From assembly GCA_028706835.1 (NCBI GenBank), contig JAQTVL010000002.1:1-39219 (forward strand): a stretch of DNA of 39,219 bases. Direction: 5' to 3'. Shown here in pieces: positions 15,143 through 34,700 of this stretch. The position numbers and the translations under genes are program-made. Position 1 is the stretch's first letter. Each line of letters begins with the position of its first letter. Under the pieces are notes generated by a model. It saw nothing but the letters and a program-made list of their open reading frames with translations. It did not search any database and had not been told where the DNA came from. The DNA is from Phycisphaerae bacterium. Its GTDB lineage: Bacteria; Planctomycetota; Phycisphaerae; JAJVII01.

Positions 15143-17016
15143 GGCATCACCAGCGCTCCCCCGCCGCCGCCGCTCGTATCCGGCCGGAACACCTCGTAGC
15201 GGCCCGCGAAGCTCCAGCTCACGCCGGCCGCCGGCGTCGGCAGGCCCGTGAGGTCGTAGGTCGTATAGACCTTGCGGCTGCCCGCGTTGTTGAACGTGCG
15301 CGCCCCGGGTCCGATGGCCGCGGTACGCAAGACGACCGGCTCGCCCGGATACGACAATTCCGAAACGCTGGAGTAGAGGGTATTCGATTCGTTCATCACG
15401 TACGGCGTGTCGTCGTACGGCACGCGCACGACGCCGACCTTGCTCGAAAGCGCCGCGAGCAAGCTGGGGCTGGGGCCGTACACCAGGTCGAAGATCGCCG
15501 CGTTACCGAACGTCAGCGTGAGCTGCACGTTCATCCCGCTGGTGTCGAACGAGTGCATCCAGCGCAAGGCCGTAGCGCCGCCGGTGCGGGCGGTGCCGCC
15601 GACCAGGTGCGTCAGCCGGTCGCCCAGGTACACCGTGCCATACGGAATCGTCACGCCCGCGTCGGTCATGTCGCCGATCGACACGCCATCCCGGATCAAG
15701 GTCGAGTGCGCGGTGTTGACCAGCGGATTGTCCGAGCCGGTTACATAGTGCGGCGCTTCCAGCGCGGTCCACGTCTTGCGGGTGTGGCATTTCCAGGTCA
15801 CGGCATCATCGACCACGGTCTGCCCGACCGTCGTCGGCCAGGTCGGCTCCACGAGCCCCGTCTTGAAATCGCCGCTGCGCGCCGTGCATTCGTATTTGTA
15901 CAACAGGGCGTTGGCCGGGTTGGTCGGCACGACGAAGGCACCCACCGCCGTAACGGTGTCGGCGGCCCACGGGGACCGGGCCTCATCGTGCTTGACGATC
16001 GGGCTGGCCGTGTTCGGGTCCACGTGCCGCCAGGCAGTGTCGTGCGGATACCAGGTGGGGATGTGGACGTTCTTCGTCTGGCCCGGACCCGCATTCTGGC
16101 CGTAGTAAACCACAAACGAGCCCGTTTCCAAACGGGCGTCTCCGGTCACGGTGATCTGGCTCGTCGTCGGGCGGGTCACGATCTCGTAGCGGTGCCCGCT
16201 GGTATCGAACTCGATATAGCCGCCGGCGACGCCCGAGGATTGGAACGTCGCGGCCACCGTCGTGATCGTCGAGTTCGGCGCGGCATAAGTGATTGTGCCG
16301 CCCGTCACGGTGCCGGTGATCCGCTCGGTAATCAGGGCCACATGTCCGTTGCCAACCCATTTTCCATCGACCCCATCGACCGCCCGCGGGTCGGCGCGCA
16401 CGGTGCTGCTCCACGACGTGGCGCTGACCAGGTACAGGTACTTGGTGCCGGTGCCCGTGATCTCCAGGAACACGTAGCGGTCCGTCTCCGCCGCACCGCA
16501 GTGAAAGTACCGTTCGAGCAGGCGCGTACTGCCGCCGCCGGCGCCGCCGCCCGGAAACGGATCGCCGAACGCCACCGCGTTGGCGATGTTCGTATCCGGA
16601 CCGATCTTGACGGTGATGCTCGGCCAGTTCGAGCTGAGTTGCGTATAAAGCAGACTGAAGTAATCGTGTCCGGCGGGCAGCAGGAACCGGGCCACGGCAT
16701 TGGCCCCGGCCCGCACGGCATGACCGGTCGAATTCCCCTGGCTATTGGTATTCCAGGCCCATGTGCCGCTGACCTCGACCAAGCGCCCATCCTGCTTCGT
16801 GCTGATCCGGCGGGAATGGGGGTAGCCCGTCTGGATGGTCTGCACGCCGAGCGAGTTCAAGGAAGAGATCGAGCCCTCGTTGGCGTTGTCCCACCAGGAT
16901 TCGGCCAACGCGTATTCGGTCCACAAGCCGGTCGCCGACTGGCTCGCCGGCACCAGGCCGACATAGCCCTTCAGTTGCGCCGGATGTCGATACACGGCCG
17001 GTTGCAGGGCAGGCAT
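15139..17016 (-). CDS. Large structural protein, 625 aa (tail/receptor-binding candidate)
   Basis: Track ORF. ATG at 17016 preceded by GAGGTGAAAC. Thr/Gly/Val-rich beta-type composition. Confidence 0.65.
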   Translation of the reverse strand: MPALQPAVYRHPAQLKGYVGLVPASQSATGLWTEYALAESWWDNANEGSISSLNSLGVQTIQTGYPHSRRISTKQDGRLVEVSGTWAWNTNSQGNSTGHAVRAGANAVARFLLPAGHDYFSLLYTQLSSNWPSITVKIGPDTNIANAVAFGDPFPGGGAGGGSTRLLERYFHCGAAETDRYVFLEITGTGTKYLYLVSATSWSSTVRADPRAVDGVDGKWVGNGHVALITERITGTVTGGTITYAAPNSTITTVAATFQSSGVAGGYIEFDTSGHRYEIVTRPTTSQITVTGDARLETGSFVVYYGQNAGPGQTKNVHIPTWYPHDTAWRHVDPNTASPIVKHDEARSPWAADTVTAVGAFVVPTNPANALLYKYECTARSGDFKTGLVEPTWPTTVGQTVVDDAVTWKCHTRKTWTALEAPHYVTGSDNPLVNTAHSTLIRDGVSIGDMTDAGVTIPYGTVYLGDRLTHLVGGTARTGGATALRWMHSFDTSGMNVQLTLTFGNAAIFDLVYGPSPSLLAALSSKVGVVRVPYDDTPYVMNESNTLYSSVSELSYPGEPVVLRTAAIGPGARTFNNAGSRKVYTTYDLTGLPTPAAGVSWSFAGRYEVFRPDTSGGGGGALVMP

Positions 17017-17042
17017 GTTTCACCTCGCGCTCAAGCGCCGCG

Positions 17043-17414
17043 TCAATCCGCCGACGCCGCCACGGTCACGTTCTTGCCGGCCCCGGACAGCACGGCCGTC
17101 ACCAGCCCGGGGTTGTGGAGCACCGCGGTCGTAATGCGCCGCGTGTTGCTCACCACGGGGCTGCCCGGCAGGGCCTCGGTGTCGTAGTCCTGGCTGGCGG
17201 TCGGCACGCGGTTGAACGTCACTTGCAGTTCATCCACCACCAGCCCCGCATCCTGCAGGCGCTGGCTGTTCAGGCACTGGCACAGGAAGCGCCGCCGGGG
17301 GCTGGTCCAGGTACACGTGACCGTCCCGCCGGCCGGAATCGTCACCCCGGCCGGGGCGAGCGTCGGCTGTTCCAGCGCTCCCTCCGCCAGGGCTTCGCGT
17401 ACTTCGATAATCAT
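17043..17414 (-). CDS. Small capsid-proximal protein (123 aa; decoration/connector candidate)
   Basis: The ATG at 17414 is preceded by CCTGAGGTTGGCG. The track start is a TTG two codons upstream. Directly follows the capsid gene. Confidence 0.55.
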   Translation of the reverse strand: MIIEVREALAEGALEQPTLAPAGVTIPAGGTVTCTWTSPRRRFLCQCLNSQRLQDAGLVVDELQVTFNRVPTASQDYDTEALPGSPVVSNTRRITTAVLHNPGLVTAVLSGAGKNVTVAASAD

Positions 17415-17423
17415 CGCCAACCT

Positions 17424-17497
17424 CAGGGGTCAGGGTTCAGGGTTCAGGGCTCAGGGTTCAGGGGGCCACGCTGGCTGAACCCTGAACCCTGAACCCT
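17424..17497 (-). repeat. Heptamer array A: six plus-strand CAGGGTT-type units (17424-17465) facing three inverted units (17475-17497), giving a long hairpin
   Basis: Read directly. The minus-strand RNA would be GAGGGUUCAGGGUUCAGGGUUCAG-loop-CUGAACCCUGAGCCCUGAACCCUGAACCC. Lies between the capsid stop (17508) and the next ATG (17414). No U-tract. Confidence 0.7.
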
Positions 17498-17507
17498 CGT
17501 TTTCTTC

Positions 17508-18839
17508 CTACGCCGACGGGTTGATCGTGTTCTTGCTCTGGGCGCCCGGATTCATCGCCAGGAGCTGACACGACGTGTACCAGTACGACTCGTACGCATT
17601 GGCGTGCTCGCCGTTGGGGCCGAGCGCCCCGCTGCGCACGATCGTCTGATCGTCGCCGTTCATGGGCCCGAGCTCGCGCTCGACGCCCAGGCAGAGCGCC
17701 TCGCTGTCGAGCATGTAGCCCGTCCAGGGGGCGATCGCCAGGTCGATGATCAGCGGCACTTCCTGGCCGTTGGGGGCCAGCCAGTGCAGGGCCGGGTAGC
17801 CGAACACGCTCTTCTTGACCGCGCTCGGCCACTGCTGATAGCCGTAGTGGATGCGGCCGAAGTTCGTGTAGTAATTCGCGTCGCACAGGATCACGTTCGG
17901 CTCGGCGTTGCAGCGTTGCTTGGCCGCGAGCCAGATCGCGAAGAGGTTGTCCACCGTCCAGGTGGACTTGGCCTGGGCCAGGTACGAGCCGCCGGCCGTC
18001 TTGGCGTTGGTGCCCGTGCGGGTGATGCCGGCGTAGGCGCCGGTGCCGACGAGCAGGTCGAGGCCCTTGATCGCGTTGCCGTACTCGGACGCGAGCGGCG
18101 TGCCGAGCGGGTCGTGAATGCCGCCGCCGACGCCGCACCCGCGGAACACGCGCGTCGACGTCGTGACGGTCGGCGTCGTGCCGACGGTGAATTGCGTGGC
18201 GCTGACGATCGTGGCGATGGTCGCGGCGACCGGGCTGGTGCCCGTCGCGGTCGCGAGCACGATCGGCTGGCCCTCTTCGAGGTGCCGCGTGCTGTCCACG
18301 GTGATCGTCGAGCCCGAGCTGCCGGCGGTCACGATGGCCAGGATGCCCGTGCCGTCGCCGTACAGGTCGCGGTTGATCTGGTTGCGCACGTCGAGCGGCA
18401 GGCCCTGCATCTCGCCGTCGATGACTTCCAGCGCCGCGGCCTTGGCGCCCTTGGACGTGTCGAGCAAGGCCCCATCAATTTTGAAGCCGCCCCAGTAGTA
18501 CGTGGGGCGGATTTGGGCGCGGATGCGGGTCTGGCTGCCGGGCAGCGGCAACCAGCCGGTGGTCTGCCCGCTGGTCGCATTGCGGGCCCCGACGCCGAAG
18601 TTGCGCCCGACGTGGATGTTCCACTCCAAACACAGCCCGTATGAGCCGTTGGCCCCGGGGACCATGGCGGTCTTCAGGCCGCCGGTGCGCTTGGCGGCGA
18701 CGCTGCCGGGCCCGGGCGCCTTTTTCTGCAGGATGTCCAGGAACGGCGTGTCGGTGTACACCGCGTCACGCACGCCGTTCAGATAGACGTTACGCAGCGT
18801 TTCGTTCCAACTGGCGAGTGTGGCGGGTGAAGCACCCAT
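17508..18839 (-). CDS. Major capsid protein candidate (443 aa)
   Basis: Position after portal and scaffold. The ATG at 18839 has the strongest RBS in the window (GAGGAGTCGAAC). Followed by a large hairpin. The track extension to 18953 runs through a terminator. Confidence 0.65.
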   Translation of the reverse strand: MGASPATLASWNETLRNVYLNGVRDAVYTDTPFLDILQKKAPGPGSVAAKRTGGLKTAMVPGANGSYGLCLEWNIHVGRNFGVGARNATSGQTTGWLPLPGSQTRIRAQIRPTYYWGGFKIDGALLDTSKGAKAAALEVIDGEMQGLPLDVRNQINRDLYGDGTGILAIVTAGSSGSTITVDSTRHLEEGQPIVLATATGTSPVAATIATIVSATQFTVGTTPTVTTSTRVFRGCGVGGGIHDPLGTPLASEYGNAIKGLDLLVGTGAYAGITRTGTNAKTAGGSYLAQAKSTWTVDNLFAIWLAAKQRCNAEPNVILCDANYYTNFGRIHYGYQQWPSAVKKSVFGYPALHWLAPNGQEVPLIIDLAIAPWTGYMLDSEALCLGVERELGPMNGDDQTIVRSGALGPNGEHANAYESYWYTSCQLLAMNPGAQSKNTINPSA

Positions 18840-18869
18840 GTTCGACTCCTCAGGTCTTTTCTGGCCCGT

Positions 18870-18914
18870 AAAAAAAGGGGCGGTGGGTCGCCTACTCAGC
18901 GAACCACCGCCCCT
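18870..18914 (-). terminator. Canonical intrinsic terminator (11-bp GC stem, extendable to about 15 bp, plus U-run) between scaffold and capsid genes
   Basis: Minus strand: AGGGGCGGTGG-loop-CCACCGCCCCT followed by TTTTTT. It ends about 30 nt upstream of the capsid ATG. Confidence 0.6.
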
Positions 18915-19059
18915 ATCCGAGCGGGTGGGATAGCACCGGCCTGCGTCGTTCATGTGGCCTCAGACCGCCACAGGCTGGCTCGGTTTTTTACGGGTTACAG
19001 AAGGTTGTTGCTCCTAAACGGGCACGGGTTTCGCCAAGATCCTCTTGGCGGGTCCAGAC

Positions 19060-19932
19060 TTATTCGTCCGCGATGCCCAGCAAGGCCGCGGCCTTCTGCT
19101 TGGCGGCCCCGCTCCTCAGCTCGGCGGCGGTGCTGGGCACGATGGTCTCGGCCGGCGGCCGGCCGCCGCCGCGTTCGCCGGTCGCCTTGCGGTCGGCGGT
19201 TTTGCGCTTCACGAACTCCGCCACCGTCTGGTTGGCGGCTTCGGCCGCCAGCTCGGTGCGCTCGTCGATGAACGCTTTGAGCGCGGCCTTCTTGGACCCG
19301 CCGTGCTCGGCGATGTACTCGGCGACATAGCCCAGGGCCTGGGCGCTCAGCGAGCGCAGCCGCTTGGGATCGTCGGCCAGCTTCGCGAACGCAGGCGCAT
19401 CGGCCAGCGTCTCTTTGACTTCCGCTTGCCACGCGGCTTTGTTCTTCGCCTCAAGCGCGGCGCGGTCCTCGTTGGCCTTCGCGCCCTCCAGGCGTTCGAG
19501 CTTGGCTTCGGCCGCCTTGAGCCTGGTCAGCACCGGATCGTCGTCTACGTCCTCTGCGGCCGGCGCTGATTTCTTCTTGCCGTCCGCACCGTCTGCGGCG
19601 GCGGCGGCTCGCCGCGCGACTTCGGCTTCCCATAGCGCCGTAGCCTCCAGCCGCTCGACCGGGTTCATCTTGTCCAGCTTCACGGCCAAGCGCTCCCCCT
19701 GCGCTCGCATGGCATCGGTGCAGCCGTACTGGTCGTAGGCCGCCGCGCGCTGCGCCTTGGTCATACCGGCCAGGGCGATCTCCACGGTGGCGGCAGCGGC
19801 CTCCGTGGTTGCCGCCGTTCCACTCGCCGCGGCAGCGCTGTCCGTTTTCGCCGCGGCCGGGGGGGCGACTCCGCCGTCGCTCCCCGGCTCGCTGGCGAGA
19901 AACACGTTCGTTGTCTTTCCGTTGGGCCACAT
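19060..19932 (-). CDS. Scaffolding protein candidate (290 aa)
   Basis: Lies between portal and capsid. Ala/Glu/Lys-rich helical sequence. ATG preceded by GAGAGGA. Confidence 0.6.
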   Translation of the reverse strand: MWPNGKTTNVFLASEPGSDGGVAPPAAAKTDSAAAASGTAATTEAAAATVEIALAGMTKAQRAAAYDQYGCTDAMRAQGERLAVKLDKMNPVERLEATALWEAEVARRAAAAADGADGKKKSAPAAEDVDDDPVLTRLKAAEAKLERLEGAKANEDRAALEAKNKAAWQAEVKETLADAPAFAKLADDPKRLRSLSAQALGYVAEYIAEHGGSKKAALKAFIDERTELAAEAANQTVAEFVKRKTADRKATGERGGGRPPAETIVPSTAAELRSGAAKQKAAALLGIADE

Positions 19933-19948
19933 AGTTGCATCCTCTCGT

Positions 19949-22153
19949 TTACGCCGCGGCCGGTGCCAGCGGCATCGGCCCCCGCGGCTGACCTACATTC
20001 CCCGGCGGCGGTCCCGCCGGCGCTGGCATGCCATTACCCCCGCCGGCCAGGAAGTTCCGCAAGATCTCACCCCGCGGACCATTCAGCAGCGCGCCCATGC
20101 GCCCCGTCTGCGGGCCGGCCTGGTTTTCGAGCTGCGCCAGTTGCTTGTCCGCGGCCTGCTTGCGCTCCCATTCCAGCTTGGCCTCGCCGCCGAGCTGCCC
20201 GACGATCAGCGGCTGCACCGCCTGGATGCGGATCGTGTCTTTGTAGTAGCGCTCGAAATTGGCCTGCACTTCCGGGCTCAGGTGCTTGAAGTCCTCGCCG
20301 TTCATGAAGTGCAGCAGCTCCGCGGTGCGCACGACGTGGTTGTGATACCACGCCGGCGGCACGTAGCGGCCCGTCACCAGGATCTCATGCACCCGCCGCT
20401 GGGCCTCGCGGTCCTGCTGATCGCGGTCCAGCCGCCCGCTGCTGTCGCCCAGCTCCAGGACGGTCAGCACGAGCTGCCGATCGGCCGGGTCCTTCGGGTC
20501 GAAGAAATTGAACTGGATGAGCGTAATGATCAGATCCGTCTGGGCCGCGCGACTGCGGGCCGCCCCGGCGGTCTTCAGCGTGACGTTGAACGCTTCCGGG
20601 CCGCTGGCGGGCGTCCCGCCGGCGACGAGCTGCTTGCCGCTCAGCGCCCGCCGCTCCCACGCGTTGTCCGCCCCCCGCACGGCGATCATCCGCTCTTCGC
20701 TGACGAACTGCCGGATGCGGCACAGGATCAGCCGGAACACGTCCTGCGTCCAGCGGGCCAGGTTCTTGCGGGTCGGGTCCATGCGCGTATCGTCGGCCGA
20801 TTGCAGGAGTTGCACGAACCGGCCCGAGCGCCCGTTGGACGGGGCCTTGCCCAGCGACACGTCCTGCACGCCGATGCAGTTCTGGATCGCCCGCACCCAG
20901 CGGTCGAACATCGCATTCCAGCTCGGCGGCAGGTCCGGCCGGTCGAGGGCCTCGGGCTTCTTGTTCTTGTAGGTGAAGTACCCGCCCTTGCCGGCCACGT
21001 CGCTGGCCAGGATGCCGTTGTCTTCCGGTCCCCACATCGACGGGTTGACGTTCAGGTCCACGGCTTCCATGCCGCGGCTGACCAGGAAGTTGATCATGGC
21101 CTGCGGGTCGAACATGTCCCAGGCCGGCGTCTTGGGCCACGGGCTGTTGCGCACGCGCAGGCAGTCGCACGGGACGTACGGCACGCGCCCGTCGTCGTAG
21201 GGGTTGGCCAGCTCCGCGTTCCGCTTGCGGTTGACCACCTGGTCATTGACCAGCACGACGTGCAAGCCGGCGGGGTGCGCGGCCGAGCGCGGCGCCCACA
21301 GCTCGAACACGAGCACCGTCTCGCCGCGCCGCTGGTCGTAGACCGTGCTGCCCTGGGCGGTGAACTCGTTCCGGTACCACAGCTCGCGGGCGTCGGCGTA
21401 GGCCGGTTTCAGGTCGTCGGCTTTGAGGCCGTAGCGCGCGATGACGTAGCCGAAGCTGCGCTCGTGGCCTTCGAGCACGTACTCGGCCTTGCGGAACGGC
21501 AGGCCGACCGGCCCCCAGGTCAGGTTCCGCAGCGGCACGTTCTCGACGCACAGCTCCCCCATGCTCACGGTGCGGCCGGCCCCGCCCTGCTCCAACGGGT
21601 CGCCGTCGAGTTGCAGCGTCTCCAACTCGGCCGCGCTCAGCTCGAATTCGCTGCCGGCCAGCGGGTCCCAGGTGACTTTGCCGAAGCCCAGGCCGCCGAA
21701 CGCGATGAGCTGGCCCATGTCGTCCTTGAGCCGGCCGAGGTCCAGATAGTCCCGGTAGTAACGCAGCCAGGTGGTCTGCGCCCGGCAGGCGTCCAGGTCG
21801 GGCTCGCTGGTGCCGGTGGGTGTGGCTTCGGGCTCGACTGGGTCCAAGGTGGTCCGGGCCACGTACTGGTCGAGCAGCGGCGCGAAGTAGTTGACCATCA
21901 TCCGCACGCGATCGTCGGGGTTGGGGATCGGCTCGATGCGAAAGCTGGTGGTTCCGCCGGTGCTGGCGTGCCACAGGTACTGGTCGCCGCGGTACCAGGC
22001 CTCGGTCAGCTCGGCCAGAAGCTCCATCTGCACCTGCTGGGCCGGGCGGGATTGCCAGACATCCTTGACGAAGGCGGCGATCTCATCGTCCTTCGTCCAG
22101 TCCACCGTGTGGAAGGGCACGCCGCCGGGCAAGGTGTGCGTCGCCAGGCTCAC
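19949..22153 (-). CDS. Portal protein candidate (734 aa)
   Basis: Size and position downstream of the large terminase. GTG start in a GTGA overlap with the upstream stop. Normal amino-acid composition versus the Arg-rich antisense ORF. Confidence 0.7.
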   Translation of the reverse strand: MSLATHTLPGGVPFHTVDWTKDDEIAAFVKDVWQSRPAQQVQMELLAELTEAWYRGDQYLWHASTGGTTSFRIEPIPNPDDRVRMMVNYFAPLLDQYVARTTLDPVEPEATPTGTSEPDLDACRAQTTWLRYYRDYLDLGRLKDDMGQLIAFGGLGFGKVTWDPLAGSEFELSAAELETLQLDGDPLEQGGAGRTVSMGELCVENVPLRNLTWGPVGLPFRKAEYVLEGHERSFGYVIARYGLKADDLKPAYADARELWYRNEFTAQGSTVYDQRRGETVLVFELWAPRSAAHPAGLHVVLVNDQVVNRKRNAELANPYDDGRVPYVPCDCLRVRNSPWPKTPAWDMFDPQAMINFLVSRGMEAVDLNVNPSMWGPEDNGILASDVAGKGGYFTYKNKKPEALDRPDLPPSWNAMFDRWVRAIQNCIGVQDVSLGKAPSNGRSGRFVQLLQSADDTRMDPTRKNLARWTQDVFRLILCRIRQFVSEERMIAVRGADNAWERRALSGKQLVAGGTPASGPEAFNVTLKTAGAARSRAAQTDLIITLIQFNFFDPKDPADRQLVLTVLELGDSSGRLDRDQQDREAQRRVHEILVTGRYVPPAWYHNHVVRTAELLHFMNGEDFKHLSPEVQANFERYYKDTIRIQAVQPLIVGQLGGEAKLEWERKQAADKQLAQLENQAGPQTGRMGALLNGPRGEILRNFLAGGGNGMPAPAGPPPGNVGQPRGPMPLAPAAA

Positions 22154-22665
22154 TTCGCCCCTCCCCGGCCCAGGAGCGACATCACGGCGCCCTGCGGCCC
22201 GTTGCGGGTCATGTTGGCGATTTTCTCTTCCTGCCGGTCGCGCAGGGCCTTGCGCTCCGCAAGCGCCGCGACCCGCCGCTCTTCGGCCGTTTCGAGCTTA
22301 TCCAGCCGCAGGGCCAAGGCGGCTAGATCGGTCTCTAACTGCTTCAAGTCTTGAACCCACTTCTCCAGGCCGCTGTCGCGGCCAATGTTGTGGGCCAAGC
22401 CGAGGTGCAACTGGAGCTGGTCGCGCAGGTTCTGGAGTTGGTTGGCGTGTCCAGCGAGAAGGCCTTGCGGCCCGCGCAAGGCCATATCAGCCTGGGCCAC
22501 GCGCGTTTCCAGGGTTACCACCCGACGCCAGAGCCTAACGCGCTTCAGGTTTTGGGCGGCGTCCAGTTCACGCAGGTCGCGCGTCACCCGACGCGATAAA
22601 TGCCAGGCCTGCCCAATCAGCAGCAGCACGCTCACCCAGAGCAGAATCAGGCTGGCCGCGGTCAT
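22150..22665 (-). CDS. Membrane-anchored coiled-coil protein (171 aa) between terminase and portal
   Basis: The ATG at 22665 has an AGGAGG RBS: MTAASLILLWVSVLLLIGQAW (TM) then heptad-like LRELDAAQNL...LETDLAALALRLDKLE. The track extension to 22911 is non-coding. Confidence 0.6.
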   Translation of the reverse strand: MTAASLILLWVSVLLLIGQAWHLSRRVTRDLRELDAAQNLKRVRLWRRVVTLETRVAQADMALRGPQGLLAGHANQLQNLRDQLQLHLGLAHNIGRDSGLEKWVQDLKQLETDLAALALRLDKLETAEERRVAALAERKALRDRQEEKIANMTRNGPQGAVMSLLGRGGAK

Positions 22666-22677
22666 GCCCGCCCCTCC

Positions 22678-22694
22678 TGTTTCACTCTGAAACA
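22678..22694. promoter_or_regulatory. parS-like palindrome copy 2: TGTTTCA-CTC-TGAAACA
   Basis: Perfect 7-bp arms that abut the AGGAGG RBS of the 22665 gene. Confidence 0.45.
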
Positions 22695-22799
22695 CCGCCG
22701 CGCCAGATTGCGGTCTCGCTGTTCGGCACTGCTCAATCTGCGTTTTCGTGGCCAGGGGGCCGCGGCAACCGCGACCAGCAAGCCGAGCACCTCTTGCAT

Positions 22800-22827
22800 G
22801 GCTGACGGCTGACGGCTGAGAGCTGAT
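22800..22827 (+). repeat. Second heptamer array: GGCTGAC GGCTGAC GGCTGAG AGCTGAT
   Basis: Read directly, 10 nt beyond the terminase stop. TGA lies on the plus (antisense) strand here. Confidence 0.6.
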
Positions 22828-22837
22828 CGCTCTTTTC

Positions 22838-24577
22838 TCACCATCGCCCACGCCCTCCGCCGCCCACGCTGGCCAGTTCGCGGTTGCGTTCCAGCGCCCG
22901 GCCGACCGCATCGACGCCGGCGTAGCCGATCTTCAGCCCGGTGCGCCGGGTGAATGCTTTATCCCGCTGGTCGCGCGTCAGCGGCGGGGCTGGGTAGCGC
23001 GCCGGGGCGCTGGCCACGATCAGGCGGTTCAGGAAATCGACCCCGTACTGCACCTCCTGGCCGCGGCTCTCGGCCGCCTCGCAGGTGTAGGGCTGCAGGC
23101 AAATGCCTGCCTTGCGGAAGCTGTTGATGCAGTCCGGTCGGCTGCGATCGCCCACGCCGCCGGTGAAGCTCCAGGCCTCGCACAGCCGGTGTACGTCGGC
23201 CGCGTTGTCGTCGATGCTGCGGCCCTGGGCCGCGAAGTCCGGGTCGTACCACTCGGCGAACACGTGCCCGTGGCCGGTGAAGTTCCAGAAGGTGGCGATG
23301 TAGCGGATCACGTCCACGCCGTGGTTGTTCTCGTCGCGCGGCCGCCCGCGCGGGCCGTAGGTCAGGTGCGTCAGCTCGTGCCAGAAGTGCGGGCAGGCGC
23401 CGATGTCCACCGTGAACTGCGTCGGGCGGTCGCGATGGTGGGCCACGCACAGGGTTACGAACGGGTCCACGCCGCCCCAGTCGAAGCCGCGGTAGAGCTG
23501 GTAGCCGTCGGCGAGCAATTCCCCGACCGGCCGGTGCAGGCCGTGCCGCTCTTTCCGCAACGCCGGGAACACGCGGCCCTCGGCCACGGAAAACGCTTCG
23601 TCGGGCGTGCTGGGAAAATCCTGCATGAACTTGATCAGGCTGCCGGAGTCGGCAATCTTCTGCCGCCGCCAACGCAATTGCGCGTTGCTCAGTTGTGGCA
23701 CGCGCTCCAGCAACTCGGCTTCCGCCGCAATTTCCTTCGGCTCGGTCAGCGCCGGCAGGGGGGCCTCGTCGCCCAGCACGGCCCGCGGCTCGTCGTACCA
23801 GGGCGCGAACACGAACGCGAAACTGCCCTCCCCTTTCATCGCCAGCCGCGCCCGCCGCTCGAACTCGCCGGAGGTGTCGGCCCCGTTGGCGGTCGATTCG
23901 ATCACGATCACCGTGAACGGCGAATCGGCCACCGAGTTACTGACCGAGAGCATCTGCTGCTGCACGCTCTCCTGGTCGCCGGCGACCTTGGCCAGCTCGG
24001 ACAGGTGCAGGAACTGGATATTGGCCGACGAGCTGATGTACTGCCCGCCAAAGGTCCGCACCTGGAGCCACGAATCGTGCTGGTCCTGAAAGTCGAGCGT
24101 GCTCGCCGCCGGCCACTTGGGCTGGCTGGTATGCTCCGGGTCGTACACGAACATGCGGGCGGTGATCTCGAAGATGTCGCGCGTGCTGCTTTCGGTATGG
24201 GCCACCACCTGGGCATAGCGGTGCGGATAATGCTTGACCAGGTAGTAGCCCAGGGCCTCCACGATGGTCGAGCAGCCGGGCTTGCGGTACTTGAGGATCA
24301 GCACGCGGACCGGCAGCCCCAGCTTGGCCTGTTCCAGCATGGCCAGGTACACGTCGGTCTGCAGCGAGTTCGGCACCAGCGTAATCAAGTGCGCGTCTTT
24401 GTCCTTGATCACGCACGGCCCGGTGATCGGCCCGACGACGCCGGCCGCCCGCATGCGGGCCTGCGCCGCGGCGCCCGGCGGCGTGTGCAGCCACAACCAG
24501 AAGCCCCGCAGAATCGGGACCATGGGGGTCGCCGTTTCGCTTGGGGCGGCGGTCAGGATGGCGGGGGCAACGCTCAC
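22838..24577 (-). CDS. terL: Terminase large subunit (579 aa)
   Basis: Walker-A-like VLILKYRKPGCSTIVEA, Walker-B-like FTVIVIESTANG, and nuclease-domain motifs FDWGGVDPFV and HGVDVIRYI. GTG start at 24577. Confidence 0.85.
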   Translation of the reverse strand: MSVAPAILTAAPSETATPMVPILRGFWLWLHTPPGAAAQARMRAAGVVGPITGPCVIKDKDAHLITLVPNSLQTDVYLAMLEQAKLGLPVRVLILKYRKPGCSTIVEALGYYLVKHYPHRYAQVVAHTESSTRDIFEITARMFVYDPEHTSQPKWPAASTLDFQDQHDSWLQVRTFGGQYISSSANIQFLHLSELAKVAGDQESVQQQMLSVSNSVADSPFTVIVIESTANGADTSGEFERRARLAMKGEGSFAFVFAPWYDEPRAVLGDEAPLPALTEPKEIAAEAELLERVPQLSNAQLRWRRQKIADSGSLIKFMQDFPSTPDEAFSVAEGRVFPALRKERHGLHRPVGELLADGYQLYRGFDWGGVDPFVTLCVAHHRDRPTQFTVDIGACPHFWHELTHLTYGPRGRPRDENNHGVDVIRYIATFWNFTGHGHVFAEWYDPDFAAQGRSIDDNAADVHRLCEAWSFTGGVGDRSRPDCINSFRKAGICLQPYTCEAAESRGQEVQYGVDFLNRLIVASAPARYPAPPLTRDQRDKAFTRRTGLKIGYAGVDAVGRALERNRELASVGGGGRGRW

Positions 24578-24585
24578 GCAGGACT

Positions 24586-24613
24586 CAGGGTTCAGGGTTC
24601 AGGGTTCAGTTCA
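24586..24613 (-). repeat. Heptamer array B: minus strand TGAACTG AACCCTG AACCCTG AACCCTG
   Basis: Read directly. Lies between the micro-ORF stop (TGA at 24611-24613, the first unit) and the terL GTG (24577). Confidence 0.7.
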
Positions 24614-24709
24614 CAGTACCGCGTCGCAGCCGGCGAACAGGCCCGCCGCGCTCAACGCCAGGCTCAGCAGCTTGGCCCAGTGTTCGATCGTCCAGTTCGA
24701 CATGGTCAT
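24611..24709 (-). CDS. Micro-ORF, 32 aa (MTMSNWTIEHWAKLLSLALSAAGLFAGCDAVL), one hydrophobic segment
   Basis: Below the track cut-off. The ATG at 24709 is preceded by GAAGGAGC. Bracketed on both sides by heptamer arrays. Confidence 0.4.
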   Translation of the reverse strand: MTMSNWTIEHWAKLLSLALSAAGLFAGCDAVL

Positions 24710-24716
24710 GCTCCTT

Positions 24717-24746
24717 CGGGTTCAGGGTTCAGGCTTCAGGGTTCAA
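24717..24746 (-). repeat. Heptamer array C: minus strand TGAACCC TGAAGCC TGAACCC TGAACCCG
   Basis: Read directly. The stop codon of the 84-aa ORF (24743-24745) is the first TGA of the array, and the array ends at the micro-ORF RBS. Confidence 0.7.
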
Positions 24747-24997
24747 TTCAACAGCAACTGCCGGGCTTCCTCGGCGGCATGTTGCAACATCGTTTGCACT
24801 GGCGAGCAAGTCGTATACACGGAGGCAGCGACGCCGATGTGGGGTTGACCATTCACCTTGAAGATCCAACCCAGCAGGCTTTTCTCCGCGAGTGACGCTT
24901 CACGCCATATCGACGTCCAAGCCTTCATTTTCTGTGGGGGATTGCCGCAGACGAATGACATAGATGCAAAAAATGGAGTCTGGTCTCGGATCAGCAT
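24743..24997 (-). CDS. Hypothetical protein (84 aa) in a locally AT-richer segment
   Basis: Track ORF. The ATG overlaps the upstream stop (TGATG). Many A/T-ending codons, unlike neighbouring genes. Confidence 0.45.
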   Translation of the reverse strand: MLIRDQTPFFASMSFVCGNPPQKMKAWTSIWREASLAEKSLLGWIFKVNGQPHIGVAASVYTTCSPVQTMLQHAAEEARQLLLN

Positions 24998-25377
24998 CAG
25001 TCGCCGTTCTCTTCCTCATTGGTACCCGGCCCATACAGCCGGTCCAGCCGCTTGTGGATGGCCTGAAAACCGGCCTTCGTGTCCGCCGCCAGCTCTTTGA
25101 CGGCCTCCTGCACGTGCGGCATCTCGATGTCGCGTTGCGTTTCGAGCTTGGTCAGCCGCATGTCGAGCTGCGCGTGCGCCGGACAGATCACGTTGACCGG
25201 CAGCGGCGGCCCGGGCTGCGTCGCGGCGGCGGTCTGTGCCGCGACGCTCGCCGGACCGCGGAACAGGTTGAGCGCCACGGGAGCCAGCTTCGTCAGCACG
25301 CCGCCCAGGATCGCGGCGCCCGTCATGGCGCCGCCCCAGAGTTCCAGGTTCGCCGCTTCACCGAGCAGGGACAGCAT
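24997..25377 (-). CDS. Hypothetical membrane-associated protein (126 aa)
   Basis: Track ORF. ATG preceded by GGAAGGATGCCCGG. Hydrophobic N-terminus (GGAMTGAAILGGVLTKLAPVALNLF) then a helical charged C-terminus. Confidence 0.55.
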   Translation of the reverse strand: MLSLLGEAANLELWGGAMTGAAILGGVLTKLAPVALNLFRGPASVAAQTAAATQPGPPLPVNVICPAHAQLDMRLTKLETQRDIEMPHVQEAVKELAADTKAGFQAIHKRLDRLYGPGTNEEENGD

Positions 25378-26841: not shown

Positions 26842-28218
26842 TTAGCGCTTGGGCGTGACGACGCGCGCCCCGGTATAGGGCGTACCGTCGATCGTCGCCG
26901 CCCAGTCGATGAACAGCGTCACGCCGGCGGGGATCTGCTCGCCGCTGTCGGTGATCTCCAGCGCCCATAAGCCGCTGCCAGCGCCCGTCTCGGCCAGCGC
27001 TTCGGTCGTCAGCAGCGCGACGCCGGCGGAGGTGGTCACGGTGATCGTGGGTGCGACCACGCCGGTCTTTTTCCAGGCCGCCGTGAGCGCGTTGTGGAAC
27101 ACGACGGCGTAATGGTCGTACGCCGAGGTGTGCAAGGCGACCACGTCGATCAGGTAGTTCAGCATGTCGGCGTGGAACGACGCCGGGGCGATCCCGGCCG
27201 TAGCGGGGTTGGCGGCCAAGGTCGTGCCCAAGGCGGCCAGGGCGGAAGCGGCATCGGCGGCGGCGGCCGTGGCCTGGGTGGCGGCCGTACCGGCATCGGT
27301 AACGATCGTATCGACCTTGCCGTCTGTGACCGCGAGCGCGGCGGCCGTCGCCGCGAGGTCCACTTTGCCGTCGGTAACGGCGAGCGCCGCGGCCGTCGCC
27401 GCGAGGTCCACTTTGCCGTCGGTGACGGCGAGCGCGGCGGCCGTCGCCGCGAGGTCCACTTTGCCGTCGGTGACGGCGAGCGCCGCGGCCGTCGCGGCGA
27501 GGTCGACCTTGCCGTCCGTGACGGCGAGCGCCGCGGCGGTGGCCGCGAGGTCGACTTTCCCTTCGACAGTGGTCAGGGCCGCGGCGGTGGCGGCGGCAGC
27601 CAAGAGCGCAGCATCCGCCGTAGCCAACTGGGTGGCCGCCCCTTCCACGCTGAACGACGCCAGCGCCGCGCTGTGCGGATTGCCGCCGATGGTCAGGATC
27701 AGACCGATCAGGGCATACTGTCCGCCGGAGACATAGAAGGCGTCGCGGGGGGCGCCCTTGGGCGTGAGGTCGATGTAGCCTGCCGCGACTTCCGCATCCG
27801 GCATGCCGCTGGTGGCCTTGACGTTCGGATCGCACAACGCCACGGACCCGCCCGTCGTGTACGGGGTGAACCCGGACGAGTCGATGGCCACCGTGATCGT
27901 GTCGCCGGTCACGTTGGTGATTTCGCCCCACAGCCCGTTGATTTCGACCATGCCTTGGACGTTGGCGAAGAGGATGAAATCGCCGATGGCGAAAGCACTG
28001 GGCGCGCCGACCTGCACGACGGCGGCCCCCGCCTTGCTGATCGCCAGGATGCTCTCGGTGGCGGCGGGGTACAGGCGGACCACCGCCAGCTTGTCCTGCC
28101 AACTGGCCGGCAGATCCTCACTGCCGGCCGCCCCGCGCGCCGCCAGGCCAAACGGCAACCGCGTGCTGGGGGGAAAACTGCCTAAAAACGGTCCGGCGTA
28201 CAGTGCGGTTTCGCCCAT
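26842..28218 (-). CDS. Repeat-containing fibre/decoration-like structural protein (458 aa)
   Basis: The ATG has an AAGGAG RBS. The N-terminal FANVQGMVEINGLWGEITNVTGDTITVAIDSSGFTPYTTGGS resembles the small beta-barrel (E1 FCCH-like) module common in phage fibre/decoration proteins (from memory). Central (GKVDLAATAAALAVTD)x5. Confidence 0.65.
   Translation of the reverse strand: MGETALYAGPFLGSFPPSTRLPFGLAARGAAGSEDLPASWQDKLAVVRLYPAATESILAISKAGAAVVQVGAPSAFAIGDFILFANVQGMVEINGLWGEITNVTGDTITVAIDSSGFTPYTTGGSVALCDPNVKATSGMPDAEVAAGYIDLTPKGAPRDAFYVSGGQYALIGLILTIGGNPHSAALASFSVEGAATQLATADAALLAAAATAAALTTVEGKVDLAATAAALAVTDGKVDLAATAAALAVTDGKVDLAATAAALAVTDGKVDLAATAAALAVTDGKVDLAATAAALAVTDGKVDTIVTDAGTAATQATAAAADAASALAALGTTLAANPATAGIAPASFHADMLNYLIDVVALHTSAYDHYAVVFHNALTAAWKKTGVVAPTITVTTSAGVALLTTEALAETGAGSGLWALEITDSGEQIPAGVTLFIDWAATIDGTPYTGARVVTPKR
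27310..27597 (-). repeat. 48-bp tandem repeat, 5 near-identical units plus 1 degenerate unit, in frame (16-aa repeat)
   Basis: Units start at 27310, 27358, 27406, 27454 and 27502 (GTCCACTTTGCCGTCGGTGACGGCGAGCGCCGCGGCCGTCGCCGCGAG type). The degenerate unit is 27550-27597. Confidence 0.85.
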
Positions 28219-28267
28219 GGCTACGCTCCTTCTGAAAGCTCAAAGCTCGAATTTTGGATCGTGCGAT

Positions 28268-28340
28268 TAGCCGGGGCGGGACTCGAACCCGCAACCTCGT
28301 GGTTATGAGCCACGCGAGCTGCCAATTGCTCTACCCAGCA
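28268..28340 (-). tRNA. tRNA with CAU anticodon (Met); initiator-like identity elements; CCA not encoded
   Basis: Manual cloverleaf: UGCUGGG UA GAGC AAUUGGCA GCUC G CGUGG CUCAUAA CCACG AGGUU GCGGG UUCGAGU CCCGC CCCGGCU A. All four arms pair except 1:72 (U/U). G18 G19 and the T-loop UUCGAGU are present. Confidence 0.8.
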
Positions 28341-28364
28341 TCCGTTCATCGTTCGTCCAAACTG

Positions 28365-28399
28365 GGTCCCGGCGGGGCTGGCTCTCCAGGGCCGGGACC
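28365..28399 (-). other. 9-bp stem hairpin (GGTCCCGGC/GCCGGGACC) between the DHH gene stop and the tRNA
   Basis: Inverted repeat read directly. Possible terminator or processing structure. No U-tract. Confidence 0.3.
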
Positions 28400-28415
28400 A
28401 CGCACACGGCAAAGT

Positions 28416-29591
28416 TCACCGCCATTTGCTTTTTTTCGCGCCGCCGCGCGCGGCCTCTTTGGGGGTCGCGCCTTCGGCCGGGGCGGCGGTCCGTGCCGCC
28501 CCGGCGTCCGGCGCCGTCGTCACTGGGAGCTCGACGGCGACATCCGGGGCGGCCGGAGCCGCCCCGGCGTCGCACTCTTTTGGCGCATCGCCAAGTGAAT
28601 TTTGAACCGGGACCGCATCCGGCGCGACAGTCAGCGCCGGCGCGGCCCCGGGGGCGGTCAGTTCTTCGGGTTTCTTATCCAGGGGACAGATGATTTCATT
28701 CAGGAATAGCAGGCCATGCGTCAACCCGTACCGGAAGCTGGCCGCCGTCGCATGGCCCCCGCCACCGTGCCGCTTCGCGAGCGCCCCCACGTCGAATTCG
28801 TTGCGCCGGCTGCGTAGCTCAAAGGTCACTTCGTCCGCGTGAATCACCGCGACCACGGCGAATTCCGCCCCCGGATTCTGGTCGAGCATCCGGTGCGCCA
28901 GATCGGAGGCCTGAAAATGGCTCGCGCAGGCCACGATCACGTCATACGCCTCGGGGTCGGCGTCCGGCGTTCCGCACAGGCCATCCGACGCCGGTGTTTC
29001 AGTCTGAAACACGCCGGCCCAGGCCTGGAGCGCCAGGAGTCCGATCTGCCGCTGGTACGCCCGCCAGATCGCCCGGCCTTCGCTGCGCAGGCTCTCCAGG
29101 CTGCCCAGCAGGTGCTCGGCGGTGTCGAGCGCGAAGTCGTAGCTGGCCAGGGCCGCGTTGATCTCATGGCTGTCGGGCAGCTCGAATTTCCACAGGTCGC
29201 GGTCCTCGACGTAGGCCAGCAGCTCGGGCAGCGGCTCGGCCGGCCGCAGAAAAGACCACGCCAGCACGCAGGCCGCGTGCGTGGGGTCGTAGACCACCTG
29301 CACGTTCTCCGGCCGCGGCCCGGCGTAGTCGAGCGCGCAGCTCGCGTGGTGGTCGATGACCAGCACGGCCGCGGCCTCGGCGCCGAGCCGGGTCACTTCG
29401 GCGAACGACTGCCCCAGGTCGAGCACCACAACGGCCTGCCCTTTGGAAATCGGCGGCAAGGGCACGCCGGCCCGCCAGGGGGTGTAGTCGGCGTCCCGGC
29501 GATAGCCGCGGTAGGCCGCGTACGCGGCCCACTGCCCGTCGGGGTCGTCGTGATAAAACACCTGCGTGACTTTGGCGTCGGCGACGTTCAT
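28416..29591 (-). CDS. DHH/DHHA1-family phosphoesterase (391 aa) with an Ala/Pro-rich C-terminal tail
   Basis: Motifs in order: VFYHDDPDG (DxD), VVLDLG, VLVIDHH (DHH), YVEDRDLWKF, and the DHHA1 signature KRHGGGGHATAASF. ATG at 29591 in an ATGA overlap with the upstream gene. Confidence 0.8.
   Translation of the reverse strand: MNVADAKVTQVFYHDDPDGQWAAYAAYRGYRRDADYTPWRAGVPLPPISKGQAVVVLDLGQSFAEVTRLGAEAAAVLVIDHHASCALDYAGPRPENVQVVYDPTHAACVLAWSFLRPAEPLPELLAYVEDRDLWKFELPDSHEINAALASYDFALDTAEHLLGSLESLRSEGRAIWRAYQRQIGLLALQAWAGVFQTETPASDGLCGTPDADPEAYDVIVACASHFQASDLAHRMLDQNPGAEFAVVAVIHADEVTFELRSRRNEFDVGALAKRHGGGGHATAASFRYGLTHGLLFLNEIICPLDKKPEELTAPGAAPALTVAPDAVPVQNSLGDAPKECDAGAAPAAPDVAVELPVTTAPDAGAARTAAPAEGATPKEAARGGAKKSKWR
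28994..29012. promoter_or_regulatory. parS-like palindrome copy 3: GTGTTTCA-GTC-TGAAACAC (8-bp arms), inside the DHH gene
   Basis: Read directly. Falls in the linker between the DHH and DHHA1 halves (translated AGVFQTETP). Confidence 0.4.
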
Positions 29592-30340
29592 GGTTCCCTC
29601 GCGGTCGTTGGGTTCAGGGTGCGGGGTTCCGGGTTCAGGTTTTCGTCATCGCCCGGGTCCTCTGCGCCGCCCCAGCGCTGGCGGTAGCGTTCGGCGTGTT
29701 CGCAGGTGCCTAAAATTCCTTCCCGCCGCAGTTCGTCGTCGCGCTCCTGCTCGATGTCCCGCGGGTCGTAGGCCCCTGCGTCCTCCGCGGCCTCGGTGGT
29801 TTGCCTTTTTCGTTCGGGCGGCGACTTCGCCCGCAGGCCCAACGGACGCCAGACCAGGGCGTACGTCAGTCCGCCGCCGAACATGAGCACCAGCGCCGCG
29901 AGCACGCCGATGGTCACGAGCGTGGTGAGGCTGTCCGAGTCGCCGAAAATCTGTCCCAGCCCCTGGGCCTTGGCCGTGCTGTGGTCGCGGGCCGTGGGCT
30001 CCTGCGCCGCGCTCAGGGCCAGGTGGAATTCGGCGGCATAGCGGCTGGCGATGTTGACCAGCCCCGCCTGAAAGTCCGGGTCGGCGAGCAACGTCTGCAG
30101 GGTCGCCGCGATGTTGCCCTGCCCCGACTGCGCCGTGTTCGTTTCCTGGGGCTGTGGCACCGCCGCCCCGGCGGTGTTTTCCGGCCGCGGGGTAATGGCG
30201 GCCGTGCCGGACCGGAGCCCGGCACAGCCCACCAACGCGGAACCCAACGTCACCAGGAAGCAGAATAGGGCCACAGATCGCACGGATTTACACCGATCGG
30301 AGTTCGTTCTTTCGGTTCTGATCCGTGTCATCCGTGTCAT
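29588..30340 (-). CDS. Lipoprotein with a C-terminal TM segment (up to 250 aa; true start uncertain)
   Basis: LVTLGSALVGCAG lipobox after a basic n-region. A later hydrophobic stretch VTIGVLAALVLMFGGGLTYALVW. Candidate starts at ATG 30340, ATG 30331 or a downstream GTG. Confidence 0.6.
   Translation of the reverse strand: MTRMTRIRTERTNSDRCKSVRSVALFCFLVTLGSALVGCAGLRSGTAAITPRPENTAGAAVPQPQETNTAQSGQGNIAATLQTLLADPDFQAGLVNIASRYAAEFHLALSAAQEPTARDHSTAKAQGLGQIFGDSDSLTTLVTIGVLAALVLMFGGGLTYALVWRPLGLRAKSPPERKRQTTEAAEDAGAYDPRDIEQERDDELRREGILGTCEHAERYRQRWGGAEDPGDDENLNPEPRTLNPTTAREP
29610..29644 (-). repeat. Heptamer array D (degenerate): plus strand GGGTTCA GGGTGCG GGGTTCC GGGTTCA GGTTTTC
   Basis: Read directly, 19-50 nt upstream of the DHH ATG. 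Here it is embedded in the last codons of the lipoprotein ORF (..ENLNPEPRTLNP..). Confidence 0.45.
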
Positions 30341-31615: not shown

Positions 31616-31628
31616 CGGGGACCGCTTT

Positions 31629-31656
31629 CAGGGTTCAGGGTTCAGTTTTCAGTCGA
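31629..31656 (-). repeat. Heptamer array E: minus strand ..CTGAAAA CTGAACC CTGAACC CTGAAAG
   Basis: Read directly, between the stop of the 53-aa ORF (31659) and the ATG of the Dam-like gene (31615). Confidence 0.65.
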
Positions 31657-34314: not shown

Positions 34315-34393
34315 ACCGCCCCGCCAACGACCGCGCCCCTAACCCGCCCCCAAAACTCGCGCCTCACCCTCCCCCGCGTGCGTTGAGGCGCTT

Positions 34394-34700
34394 CCGTTCC
34401 ATCGTGTTCCGAGCCCCGGCAGAACTGTGAACACCGTAATATACGTCCAACACTGCACTTACGCACCGTGTTCCACTTGTTCACTCTGTTCCGACCAAAC
34501 AGCCTACGTATAGAGAGCGCTGGGGGACCGTTCATCGTGAATAGGCACCTAGAGAAAACCCTACAGGCGCGCGAGATTTGACTGAACACAGGAACACAGT
34601 CTGATAATCATACACAAGTCCTTATCACTGGGTATGTTAGAGTGTTCCAAACCTGTTCCACTTTCAATTTATGTTCCAAGTTGAGGATGGAACAGCCTAC
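34394..34700. repeat. Iteron field: at least 8 perfect TGTTCC/GGAACA plus 3 TGTTCA/TGAACA copies in both orientations, in an AT-richer non-coding region (34315-34990). attP arm-site or centromere/origin candidate
   Basis: Direct copies at 34405, 34469, 34487, 34643, 34654 and 34672; inverted copies at 34591 and 34689; variants at 34428, 34478 and 34583. Also AACAGCCTAC x2 (34498, 34691), GGTATGTTAG x2 (34631, 34853) and TATAGAG(A)GCGC x2 (34509, 34916). Confidence 0.6.

Follow-up and report, generated by a model that had tools for sequence, protein, structure and literature searches.

Start-proximal TGAACCC heptamer arrays in a temperate podovirus and in bacterial genomes share a G-poor mRNA strand

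The described elements closest to those reported here are of two kinds. Direct TAACTGA repeats were reported from marine Beggiatoaceae, Cyanobacteria and Bacteroidetes, where two to six or more tandem copies lie mostly in intergenic regions, in forward orientation and a few nucleotides upstream of starts (MacGregor, 2015; PMC4679880). These arrays present stop codons in all three frames, in some cases overlap the stop of the upstream gene, usually lack a Shine-Dalgarno (SD) sequence and contain one G per unit; the downstream genes have no common function, and insertions and deletions occur in steps of 7 nt. A translational role, mediated by ribosomal protein S1, cold-shock proteins (Csp) or CsrA-like proteins, was proposed without experiment, and the word "phage" is absent from the text of that paper (PMC4679880). 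The second kind comprises the G-rich heptameric simple sequence repeats (SSRs) GGGNATC and GGGGA(C/T)T of Xanthomonas and Nostoc (Rehm et al., 2015; PMC4692102). Where these lie upstream of an open reading frame (ORF), within 0-50 bp, the G-rich strand is the non-coding one, and paired inverted copies are common. According to earlier work as cited by Rehm et al., heptamer SSRs are over-represented in prokaryotes, and Calothrix PCC 7601 has three tandemly repeated heptanucleotides (cited in PMC4692102). Here we describe arrays of another unit, TGAACCC, in the window, by which we mean the whole 39,219-nt (39.2-kb) contig JAQTVL010000002.1 of the Phycisphaerae bacterium assembly GCA_028706835.1, a temperate, SU10-like podovirus with a G+C content of 67.8%. 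A preliminary description of this DNA knew of no element of such a kind on record; the published TAACTGA (PMC4679880) and GGGNATC (PMC4692102) heptamers are such elements, and the arrays in the window very probably belong to the same class of heptanucleotide repeats.

Five TGAACCC arrays were identified in the window, all in sense orientation on the minus strand and all 8-18 nt before a start codon. A pattern of two units, with at most one mismatch, gave 13 matches in the window versus 0.01 expected from shuffles, which bears out the sense orientation, start-proximal position and non-random occurrence put forward in the preliminary description. The five arrays listed there were all recovered, although their coordinates had been padded by a few bases and a sixth array, with a different unit, had been missed. 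Array A (17426-17460, minus strand, as are all arrays and genes given below) consists of the units TGAACCC, TGAGCCC, TGAACCC, TGAACCC and TGACCCC, followed by TGAGG, which contains the SD, and by the ATG at 17414 of a gene for about 123 aa (17043-17414). Array B (24588-24608) is a perfect (TGAACCC)3, flanked by a truncated TGAAC at 24609-24613 and by TGAGTCC at 24581-24587; it occupies the spacer from the stop of a micro-ORF to the GTG at 24577 of the large terminase gene, terL (22838-24577), and ends 10 nt from that start. Array C (24718-24745) reads TGAACCC, TGAAGCC, TGAACCC, TGAACCC, then GAAGGAG, and lies 8 nt from the ATG of the micro-ORF at 24709. Array D (29610-29637) is degenerate, with TGAACCC, GGAACCC, CGCACCC and TGAACCC followed by GAGGGA, and precedes the ATG at 29591 of a DHH phosphoesterase gene (28416-29591) by 18 nt. 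Array E (31624-31651) is made up of TGAAAAC, TGAACCC, TGAACCC and TGAAAGC, with the perfect units at 31631-31644, and sits between a 71-aa ORF of low G+C (0.58) and the ATG at 31615, at a spacing of 15 nt, of a DNA methyltransferase-like gene (30971-31615). An SD stands between array and start at A (GAGG), C (GAAGGAG) and D (GAGGGA) and is lacking at B and E; a GAGG-type SD precedes most window genes. The sixth array (22800-22820; CTCAGCC, GTCAGCC, GTCAGCC) follows terL and directly abuts the ATG at 22799, which opens a doubtful 45-aa ORF. Its unit, GTCAGCC, contains no stop triplet.

The same repeat was found in other genomes. Relatives of the window phage and array-bearing loci are labelled below by L numbers; IMG/VR contigs formed the viral set, and metagenome-assembled genomes (MAGs) were the main cellular carriers. 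(TGAACCC)3 occurred in 63 stretches of viral contigs, with G+C contents of 41-72%. In cellular genomes it was present in over 120 stretches, which is a lower bound; MAGs of Planctomycetota, Acidobacteriota, Verrucomicrobiota/Lentisphaerae or Gemmatimonadota accounted for about 60% of the 80 cellular matches listed. Comparison of the window proteins with the 63 array-bearing viral loci yielded no genuine match. Since unrelated viral contigs and cellular genomes alike carry (TGAACCC)3, the repeat is not specific to phages, and an element of the host level is favoured over one of the phage level. The genes preceded by cellular arrays have N-termini that we take to resemble those of YchF, DnaX, HemA and ABC ATPases. 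A phage late regulator, one of the binding partners suggested in the preliminary description, is not supported: the same arrays precede housekeeping-like genes in bacterial MAGs, they occur in phages that share no proteins with the window, and array-rich phages have only capsid and protease proteins in common. When the ORFs of 52 array-rich loci were clustered, all that emerged was prohead protease, capsid and tail-type proteins and translations of the repeats, and a shared phage-encoded binder was rejected on that basis. The suggestion of a terminase recognition element fared no better: the five array sites are spread over 14 kb, are missing in terL relatives and have counterparts before bacterial genes.

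The position and strand of the arrays were then compared across these genomes. An array was scored as start-proximal when an ORF of at least 80 aa started within 30 nt downstream of it, with duplicates removed. For cellular (TGAACCC)3, such a start was present on the sense side in 69 of 172 cases versus 11 of 172 on the antisense side (p = 2e-11), and for TGACCAC arrays the corresponding figures were 31/57 and 8/57. Many arrays elsewhere directly abut the ATG and so leave no room for an SD; arrays were also found at divergent gene pairs. Three units were the commonest array size (109 of 257). Where arrays formed inverted pairs, the order was always (GGGTTCA)n...(TGAACCC)n, at 26:0, and TGACCAC pairs behaved likewise at 10:0, so that on either strand the G-rich arm comes first, in 5' position, with the C-rich arm beside the start. 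The strands of the genes flanking inverted pairs were judged from the individual sequences, GC content at third codon positions being unreliable for this in high-GC loci. The pair at array A follows this rule on the coding strand. In five viral contigs (L339, L379, L368, L058 and L362), a heptamer array occupies nearly every intergenic spacer, the densest viral contigs having 17 arrays in 9.1 kb (L339), 15 in 13.9 kb and 14 in 13.5 kb. Two array-rich viral contigs also have a conserved GACGCGCAAGCGG motif in the loop between the G-arm and the C-arm, and similar motifs, GCGCAAGCGC and CGCTTGCGCG, adjoin arrays in Planctomycetota and Pirellulales MAGs (loop or flank motifs at L015, L018, L024, L042 and L058, and also at L067 and L083). 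Motifs of the GACGCGCAAGCGG type could represent a promoter or a protein site restricted to these hosts.

In viral contigs, units that keep the TGA outnumbered units of the same composition without it by about 20 to one. Thus, (TGACCAC)3 was present in 66 viral stretches, as against three for (CCCAAGT)3 and two for (TCACGAC)3. The version with TAG in place of TGA, (TAGACCC)3, occurred in 10 stretches, (TGAGTGC)3 in 22 and the published unit, (TAACTGA)3, in 107. Within single arrays TGACCAC grades into TGATAAC, which is TAACTGA in another register. Among L327, L330, L335 and L200, single arrays mix TGACCAC, TGATCAC, TGATTAC and TGATAAC, and one contig carries both TGAGTGC and TAACTGA arrays. 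In light of the mixed-unit arrays, TAACTGA has the look of a TGA-NNAC unit at the low-GC extreme of such a series. A tally over all the loci gave 128 different units. In the loci sorted by period, among perfect arrays other than the seed units, 139 had a period of 7, compared with 12, 35, 15, 6, 1 and 1 for periods of 5, 6, 8, 9, 10 and 11, respectively.

The feature common to the units is a G-poor mRNA strand, and neither a stop codon nor a G-quadruplex (G4): among independent heptamer arrays beside starts, C exceeded G in 39 and G exceeded C in nine (p = 1.5e-5). Arrays B, C and E were predicted to be unpaired in minimum free energy (MFE) folds. For 110 cases, we calculated the predicted cost of opening the region from -15 to +12 around the start codon. 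This cost was 6.8 kcal/mol for native arrays. Inverting the array raised it to 11.8 kcal/mol (native lower in 88/110, p = 5e-15), and shuffling the array raised it to 8.1 kcal/mol (native lower in 86/110, p = 7e-11).

The explanation that we favour, tentatively and at a little less than an even chance, is that the arrays act at the RNA level as a G-poor, structure-free leader favouring initiation at the downstream gene, with the UGA triplets and the hairpin at array A in secondary roles. We infer that replication slippage at gene junctions is the probable origin of the arrays and of their changes in length; gain and loss would be rapid and, in the window phage, would often go together with lineage-specific inserted DNA. 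Arrays would persist almost only where the G-poor strand, (UGAACCC)n, enters the mRNA directly 5' of a start, and would there leave the ribosome-binding region open by providing an unstructured, G-poor stretch, as a leader or as a spacer between cistrons. Such an open region would permit SD-assisted initiation at A, C and D or SD-less initiation at B and E, in each case by the host machinery and not by a phage factor. UGA in all frames would be a property of the TGAACCC unit, liable to halt ribosomes arriving from upstream, and not a generally selected feature. At array A, the partial inverted copy upstream would give rise to a long hairpin filling a conserved stem-loop position after the capsid gene.

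A bolder proposal, which we consider distinctly unlikely, is that TGA-HHH-C heptamers (TGAACCC, TGACCAC, TGATAAC) constitute a cross-phylum, SD-independent signal for initiation or reinitiation that is read by a conserved host factor and has been spread by phages copying it to plug in new genes. Candidate readers would be ribosomal protein S1, a cold-shock-type protein with an oligonucleotide/oligosaccharide-binding (OB) fold, taking one heptamer per domain, or a ring protein taking a triplet every 7 nt. Were this true, phages copying the signal would spread the repeats between bacterial lineages.

Relatives of the window phage show how labile the arrays are. Homologs of the terL product with 46-57% identity in the protein database lie on syntenic contigs, in which the gene order is DHH, two genes, terL, a small gene, portal, scaffold, capsid and adaptors. 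The preliminary description had called for the heptamer to be counted in related phages; no heptamer arrays were found in three of four syntenic relatives (L189, L190 and L193), and those of the fourth, L191, are built of different units, TGAGTGC and TGAGATT, and lie at other junctions, on the sense strand and running from or after the stop to just before the start. Near-identical contigs differ in copy number, with four units in L001 and three in L002. The arrays are labile, given that relatives have none or have other units, and the close relatives that lack them at the same junctions indicate that any benefit is dispensable.

This last point weighs against a structure-free leader, as do several others. 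TAACTGA and TGAGTGC arrays in viral contigs showed no start-proximal sense bias (13 sense versus 18 antisense and 5 versus 5, respectively). The accessibility test is partly circular, in that the region scored overlaps the array, and pairing is inevitable when a G-rich insert is placed among C-rich sequence. The proposed role in translation draws on position, strand and predicted folding only. Moreover, an unstructured leader does not explain the approximately 20-fold excess of particular units, nor the dominance of period 7 (139 versus 1-35). Finally, the use of TGAACCC arrays by the host of the window phage is presumed from other genomes.

The main rival account, doubtful on balance although it retains an appreciable chance of being right, is that the arrays are tolerated, functionless by-products of slippage, perhaps spread by recombination, from which selection removes only harmful orientations and positions, namely G-rich arrays near a start and arrays inside genes. 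Arrays missing from three of the four syntenic relatives and of different unit in the fourth, copy number varying between near-identical contigs and 128 different units are all consistent with it, as are the viral TAACTGA and TGAGTGC arrays without start bias and a general excess of period 7, which earlier work ascribed to slippage (cited in PMC4692102). The inverted orientation, furthermore, is predicted to close the start region, which makes a filter by orientation plausible. Less readily accommodated is the roughly 20-fold enrichment of particular units over same-composition controls in unrelated phages and phyla. Arrays also often take over the whole spacer together with the SD position, ending 0-8 nt from the ATG; greater openness is predicted for native arrays than for shuffles of the same composition; and some phages, with L339 as the extreme, have an array before nearly every gene.

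Stop codons offered another explanation. The preliminary description was right that three consecutive units put UGA in all three reading frames, and it proposed an all-frame translational insulator. In the form weighed here, a UGA every 7 nt would uncouple adjacent cistrons or park terminating ribosomes beside the next start as a reinitiation pad, an idea that we regard as improbable. It accords with the upstream stops at two arrays: at C, as had been claimed, the 84-aa ORF upstream ends on the first TGA of the array, whereas at B the stop of the micro-ORF is the TGA of the truncated unit just before the array and not, as claimed, the first TGA of the array itself. It accords, too, with some swaps of TGA for TAA or TAG in TGACCAC arrays and with the viral abundance of TGA units (63 and 66 stretches versus 3 and 2 for those without TGA on the G-poor strand, and 10 for the TAG version), an abundance that leaves stops open as a contributing factor. 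However, in independent arrays flanked by a start on just one side, stop triplets numbered 33 in sense versus 38 in antisense (8 versus 15 in the fully independent subset), internal degenerate units had mostly lost the stop (34 non-stop versus 4 stop; 25 versus 11), and the window's own (GTCAGCC)3 has no stop. These counts, together with the degenerate units and the sixth array, leave selection for all-frame stops unsupported as a general rule. Array D is near a start, as described, but is not intergenic: ORF 29588-30340 reads through it, the array falling within the 3' end of that ORF, and since its two intact TGAs are 21 nt apart they share one frame, which is not that of the ORF. At divergent gene pairs, moreover, no upstream ORF feeds into the array. 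The very start of ORF 29588-30340 (30314-30340) carries a short repeat of its own, the 9-nt unit ATGACACGG in 2.8 copies, encoding MTRMTRI... with two in-frame ATGs.

Action at the level of DNA seems highly improbable, whether by a G4 of (GGGTTCA)n on the template strand, with an i-motif on the opposite strand, or by a heptad-binding, omega-like protein that polymerises on the repeats and controls transcription. The layout of the arrays does resemble that of the omega operators of inc18 plasmids, in which direct and inverted heptads lie upstream of genes, and the strict polarity of inverted pairs would suit a dimeric binder. Four or more units of GGGTTCA form a canonical G4 motif, and arrays A and D have six and four G-runs, respectively; the related GGGNATC heptamers form G4 in vitro, with the same polarity (PMC4692102). 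Arrays B, C and E, however, have only three, three and two G-runs, three-unit arrays are the commonest overall, and TGACCAC and TGATAAC arrays, which have no G-runs, show the same position bias and polarity. On the G-run counts and the behaviour of TGACCAC, a G4 was rejected as the common mechanism. In addition, arrays fill stop-to-start spacers inside operons, and the search for a shared binder, whether a ribbon-helix-helix (RHH) protein or another, drew a blank both in the window and in array-rich phages; among the 30 window proteins specifically, no RHH or other DNA-binding family was detected. A promoter was likewise rejected: no sigma-70-like site was found near any array, and reading TGAACC as a -35 element of the extracytoplasmic function (ECF) type left no matching -10 by eye. 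Complementarity to the 3' end of 16S rRNA or to tRNA T-arms, weighed as an idea only, seemed unconvincing.

In the window, the arrays often accompany lineage-specific DNA. In relatives, a gene of about 100 aa abuts or overlaps terL, whereas the window has about 420 bp extra at this junction, comprising an 84-aa ORF (24743-24997; G+C 0.54, or 54%, versus a phage average of 0.68) with no homolog in the relatives, array C, the micro-ORF and array B. The micro-ORF (24611-24709), which lies between arrays C and B, encodes a hydrophobic product of 32 aa (MTMSNWTIEHWAKLLSLALSAAGLFAGCDAVL), has a G+C content at third codon positions (GC3) of 0.91 and is also missing in the relatives. Downstream of terL, the spacer exceeds that of the relatives by about 130 nt, and the extra DNA starts with (GTCAGCC)3. 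Array E follows the low-GC 71-aa ORF, and L191 has an array at the DHH junction, where the window has an extra 2.2 kb. Such placements are what would be expected if identical arrays of 21-35 bp, common to unrelated phages and sited between genes, were recombination junctions or moron boundaries, that is, sites or remnants of illegitimate or short-homology cassette exchange. We nevertheless consider this quite improbable as an explanation of the arrays, which show a strong strand bias relative to genes that recombination does not need, and which also precede core genes such as DHH and chromosomal housekeeping-like genes; furthermore, no cassette was found between arrays in two different phages. 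The segment from the tRNA gene to the 84-aa gene of the window is missing in L191.

The region between the capsid and the next gene was considered separately. The major capsid gene (17508-18953) has its stop just before an inverted partner of array A at 17476-17496, 12 nt after the stop, which comprises three perfect units on the plus strand, so that the coding strand reads (GGGTTCA)3. The preliminary description had recognized a long hairpin without a U-tract here, and the predicted fold agrees: the sequence from the capsid stop to the next start forms a stem of about 26 bp (-54.5 kcal/mol, z = -5.4), with the inverted copy as the 5' arm and the first three units of array A as the 3' arm, after which the sequence continues with UGAACCCUGACCCC. 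For want of a U-tract, this hairpin does not meet the definition of an intrinsic terminator, and a terminator scan reported no terminator-like site at this position. Hairpins unrelated in sequence and devoid of heptamers follow the capsid gene in L189 (-55 kcal/mol, z = -6.6) and L193 (-49.6 kcal/mol, z = -3.8), indicating that a post-capsid stem-loop is a conserved positional feature that is built of heptamers in the window. The stabiliser or processing site proposed earlier is therefore a reasonable reading in light of the relatives' hairpins, and an attenuator is equally so; the predicted stem-loop probably protects the 3' end of the capsid message, or attenuates.

The remaining features of the contig provide the setting of the arrays. 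The minus strand holds almost all genes from about 1.1 to 32 kb. Besides the major capsid, terL, DHH phosphoesterase and methyltransferase-like genes, a P22/SU10-type portal, an SU10 adaptor, a tyrosine integrase, an AAA ATPase and a DUF927 protein were annotated. The capsid protein has an identity of only 26-32% to proteins of Arthrobacter, Microbacterium and Cellulosimicrobium phages; a megablast search of GenBank phages with positions 17000-25000 gave no match, and IMG/VR searched with terL yielded no relatives. A tRNA-Met gene with anticodon CAT (28268-28340; Rfam, 61.7 bits, with ARAGORN concurring) lies between the DHH gene and a gene for 458 aa and was the only known RNA family matched in the Rfam search; the 63-aa "ORF" over it (28221-28412) is spurious and gave rise to the one tblastn match, which was in the array-bearing contig L038. 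The 458-aa ORF (26842-28218) contains a 48-bp tandem repeat at 27317-27565 (5.2 copies, 91% matches, Tandem Repeats Finder score 400), and its product, with a weak E1_FCCH-like match and a beta-helical trimerisation match, is probably a repetitive fibre or surface protein. For ORF 22150-22911, the mechanically assigned start at 22911, which would make the ORF overlap terL by 74 nt, is almost certainly an error; the ATG at 22665, with a strong AGGAGG upstream, gives a 171-aa product matching the small gene that relatives have between terL and portal. After the integrase gene, 1.5 kb without a supported ORF (34315-35791, 59% G+C) contains clustered short repeats with GTTC/GAAC, such as TGTGAACACCG, GTGTTCCACTTGTTCACTCTGTTCC and TGAACACAGGAACACAG, and may be an attP region with integrase arm sites. 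The closest relative, L189, has a match to the Acb2/Tad1 hairpin domain of the anti-CBASS/anti-Thoeris sponge family at 1309-1626, upstream of its DHH-terL block; no counterpart of this Acb2/Tad1-type protein was seen in the window.

Bacterial heptamer repeats have been on record for decades and are still without a function. The present analysis shows such repeats to be common in phages (63 viral stretches with TGAACCC, 66 with TGACCAC and 107 with TAACTGA), and strict rules of sense strand and polarity to hold for TGAACCC and TGACCAC. Phages, with short genomes and in some cases an array before nearly every gene, offer a compact test bed, and it is plausible that they brought about the horizontal spread which earlier authors found puzzling. 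If the arrays were to drive SD-independent initiation, gene-start prediction and expression design would have to reckon with them in Planctomycetota, Acidobacteriota, Verrucomicrobiota and their phages.

Several known systems bear a partial likeness to the arrays. Sites of the pac and cos type are one or few in number, near terminase genes and lineage-specific; the five TGAACCC sites extend over 14 kb, are missing in terL relatives and recur before bacterial housekeeping-like genes. Operators of the omega type consist of contiguous 7-bp heptads and go with a cognate RHH protein encoded nearby; the window has heptads but no RHH protein among its 30 proteins. The RNA sites of HutP and TRAP are triplets at fixed spacing, HutP binding three UAG-N4 units with a period of 7. 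The arrays similarly present a purine-containing triplet every 7 nt in a 5' leader, with variable bases between (TGA-ACCC, TGA-CCAC, TGA-TAAC, TGA-GTGC); TGA is, however, not preferentially kept within arrays, no protein like HutP or TRAP was found, although no search was aimed at one, and the likeness is one of possible working and not of membership. The stem-loop at array A shares with the stem-loops that follow phage major capsid genes its place directly after the capsid stop and its length and GC-richness; its arms are made of heptamers, and it has no U-tract, which an intrinsic terminator requires. Cyanobacterial short tandemly repeated repetitive (STRR) heptamers are tandem and intergenic, with many copies and several units per genome; they differ from the window arrays in units and host clade, and we know of no start-proximal sense rule established for them.

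The likeness to the two published heptamer classes is closer. With the GGGNATC type, the window arrays share the period of 7, a GGG run per unit, a mostly intergenic position, a non-coding G-rich strand, inverted pairs and a length that varies between relatives. They differ in their unit, which on that strand is GGGTTCA, and in that only two of the five arrays (A and D) have at least four G3 runs; most TGAACCC arrays are too short for an intramolecular G4, and the sister unit TGACCAC has no G-runs. The Xanthomonas repeats, unlike the window arrays, lie nearer to the end of the upstream ORF than to the next start (PMC4692102). With the TAACTGA type, the window arrays have in common their tandem arrangement (2-5 units at five sites), sense orientation, position 8-18 nt from starts and a TGA every 7 nt, and TGAACCC, like that unit, is far commoner than heptamers of the same composition (63 versus 3 and 2), TGACCAC being equally common (66). 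Here, the differences are the unit itself, linked to TAACTGA indirectly through TGACCAC grading into TGATAAC; the SD, usually lacking at TAACTGA and in the window lacking at two of the five arrays (B and E) and kept at three (A, C and D); and the carriers, which for TGAACCC are phages and MAGs mainly of Planctomycetota, Acidobacteriota and Verrucomicrobiota. A literature search found no tandem TGAACCC in a microbial context, and what is new beside the published heptamers is the unit, the host phyla, the phage context, the polarity rule and the swapping of units.

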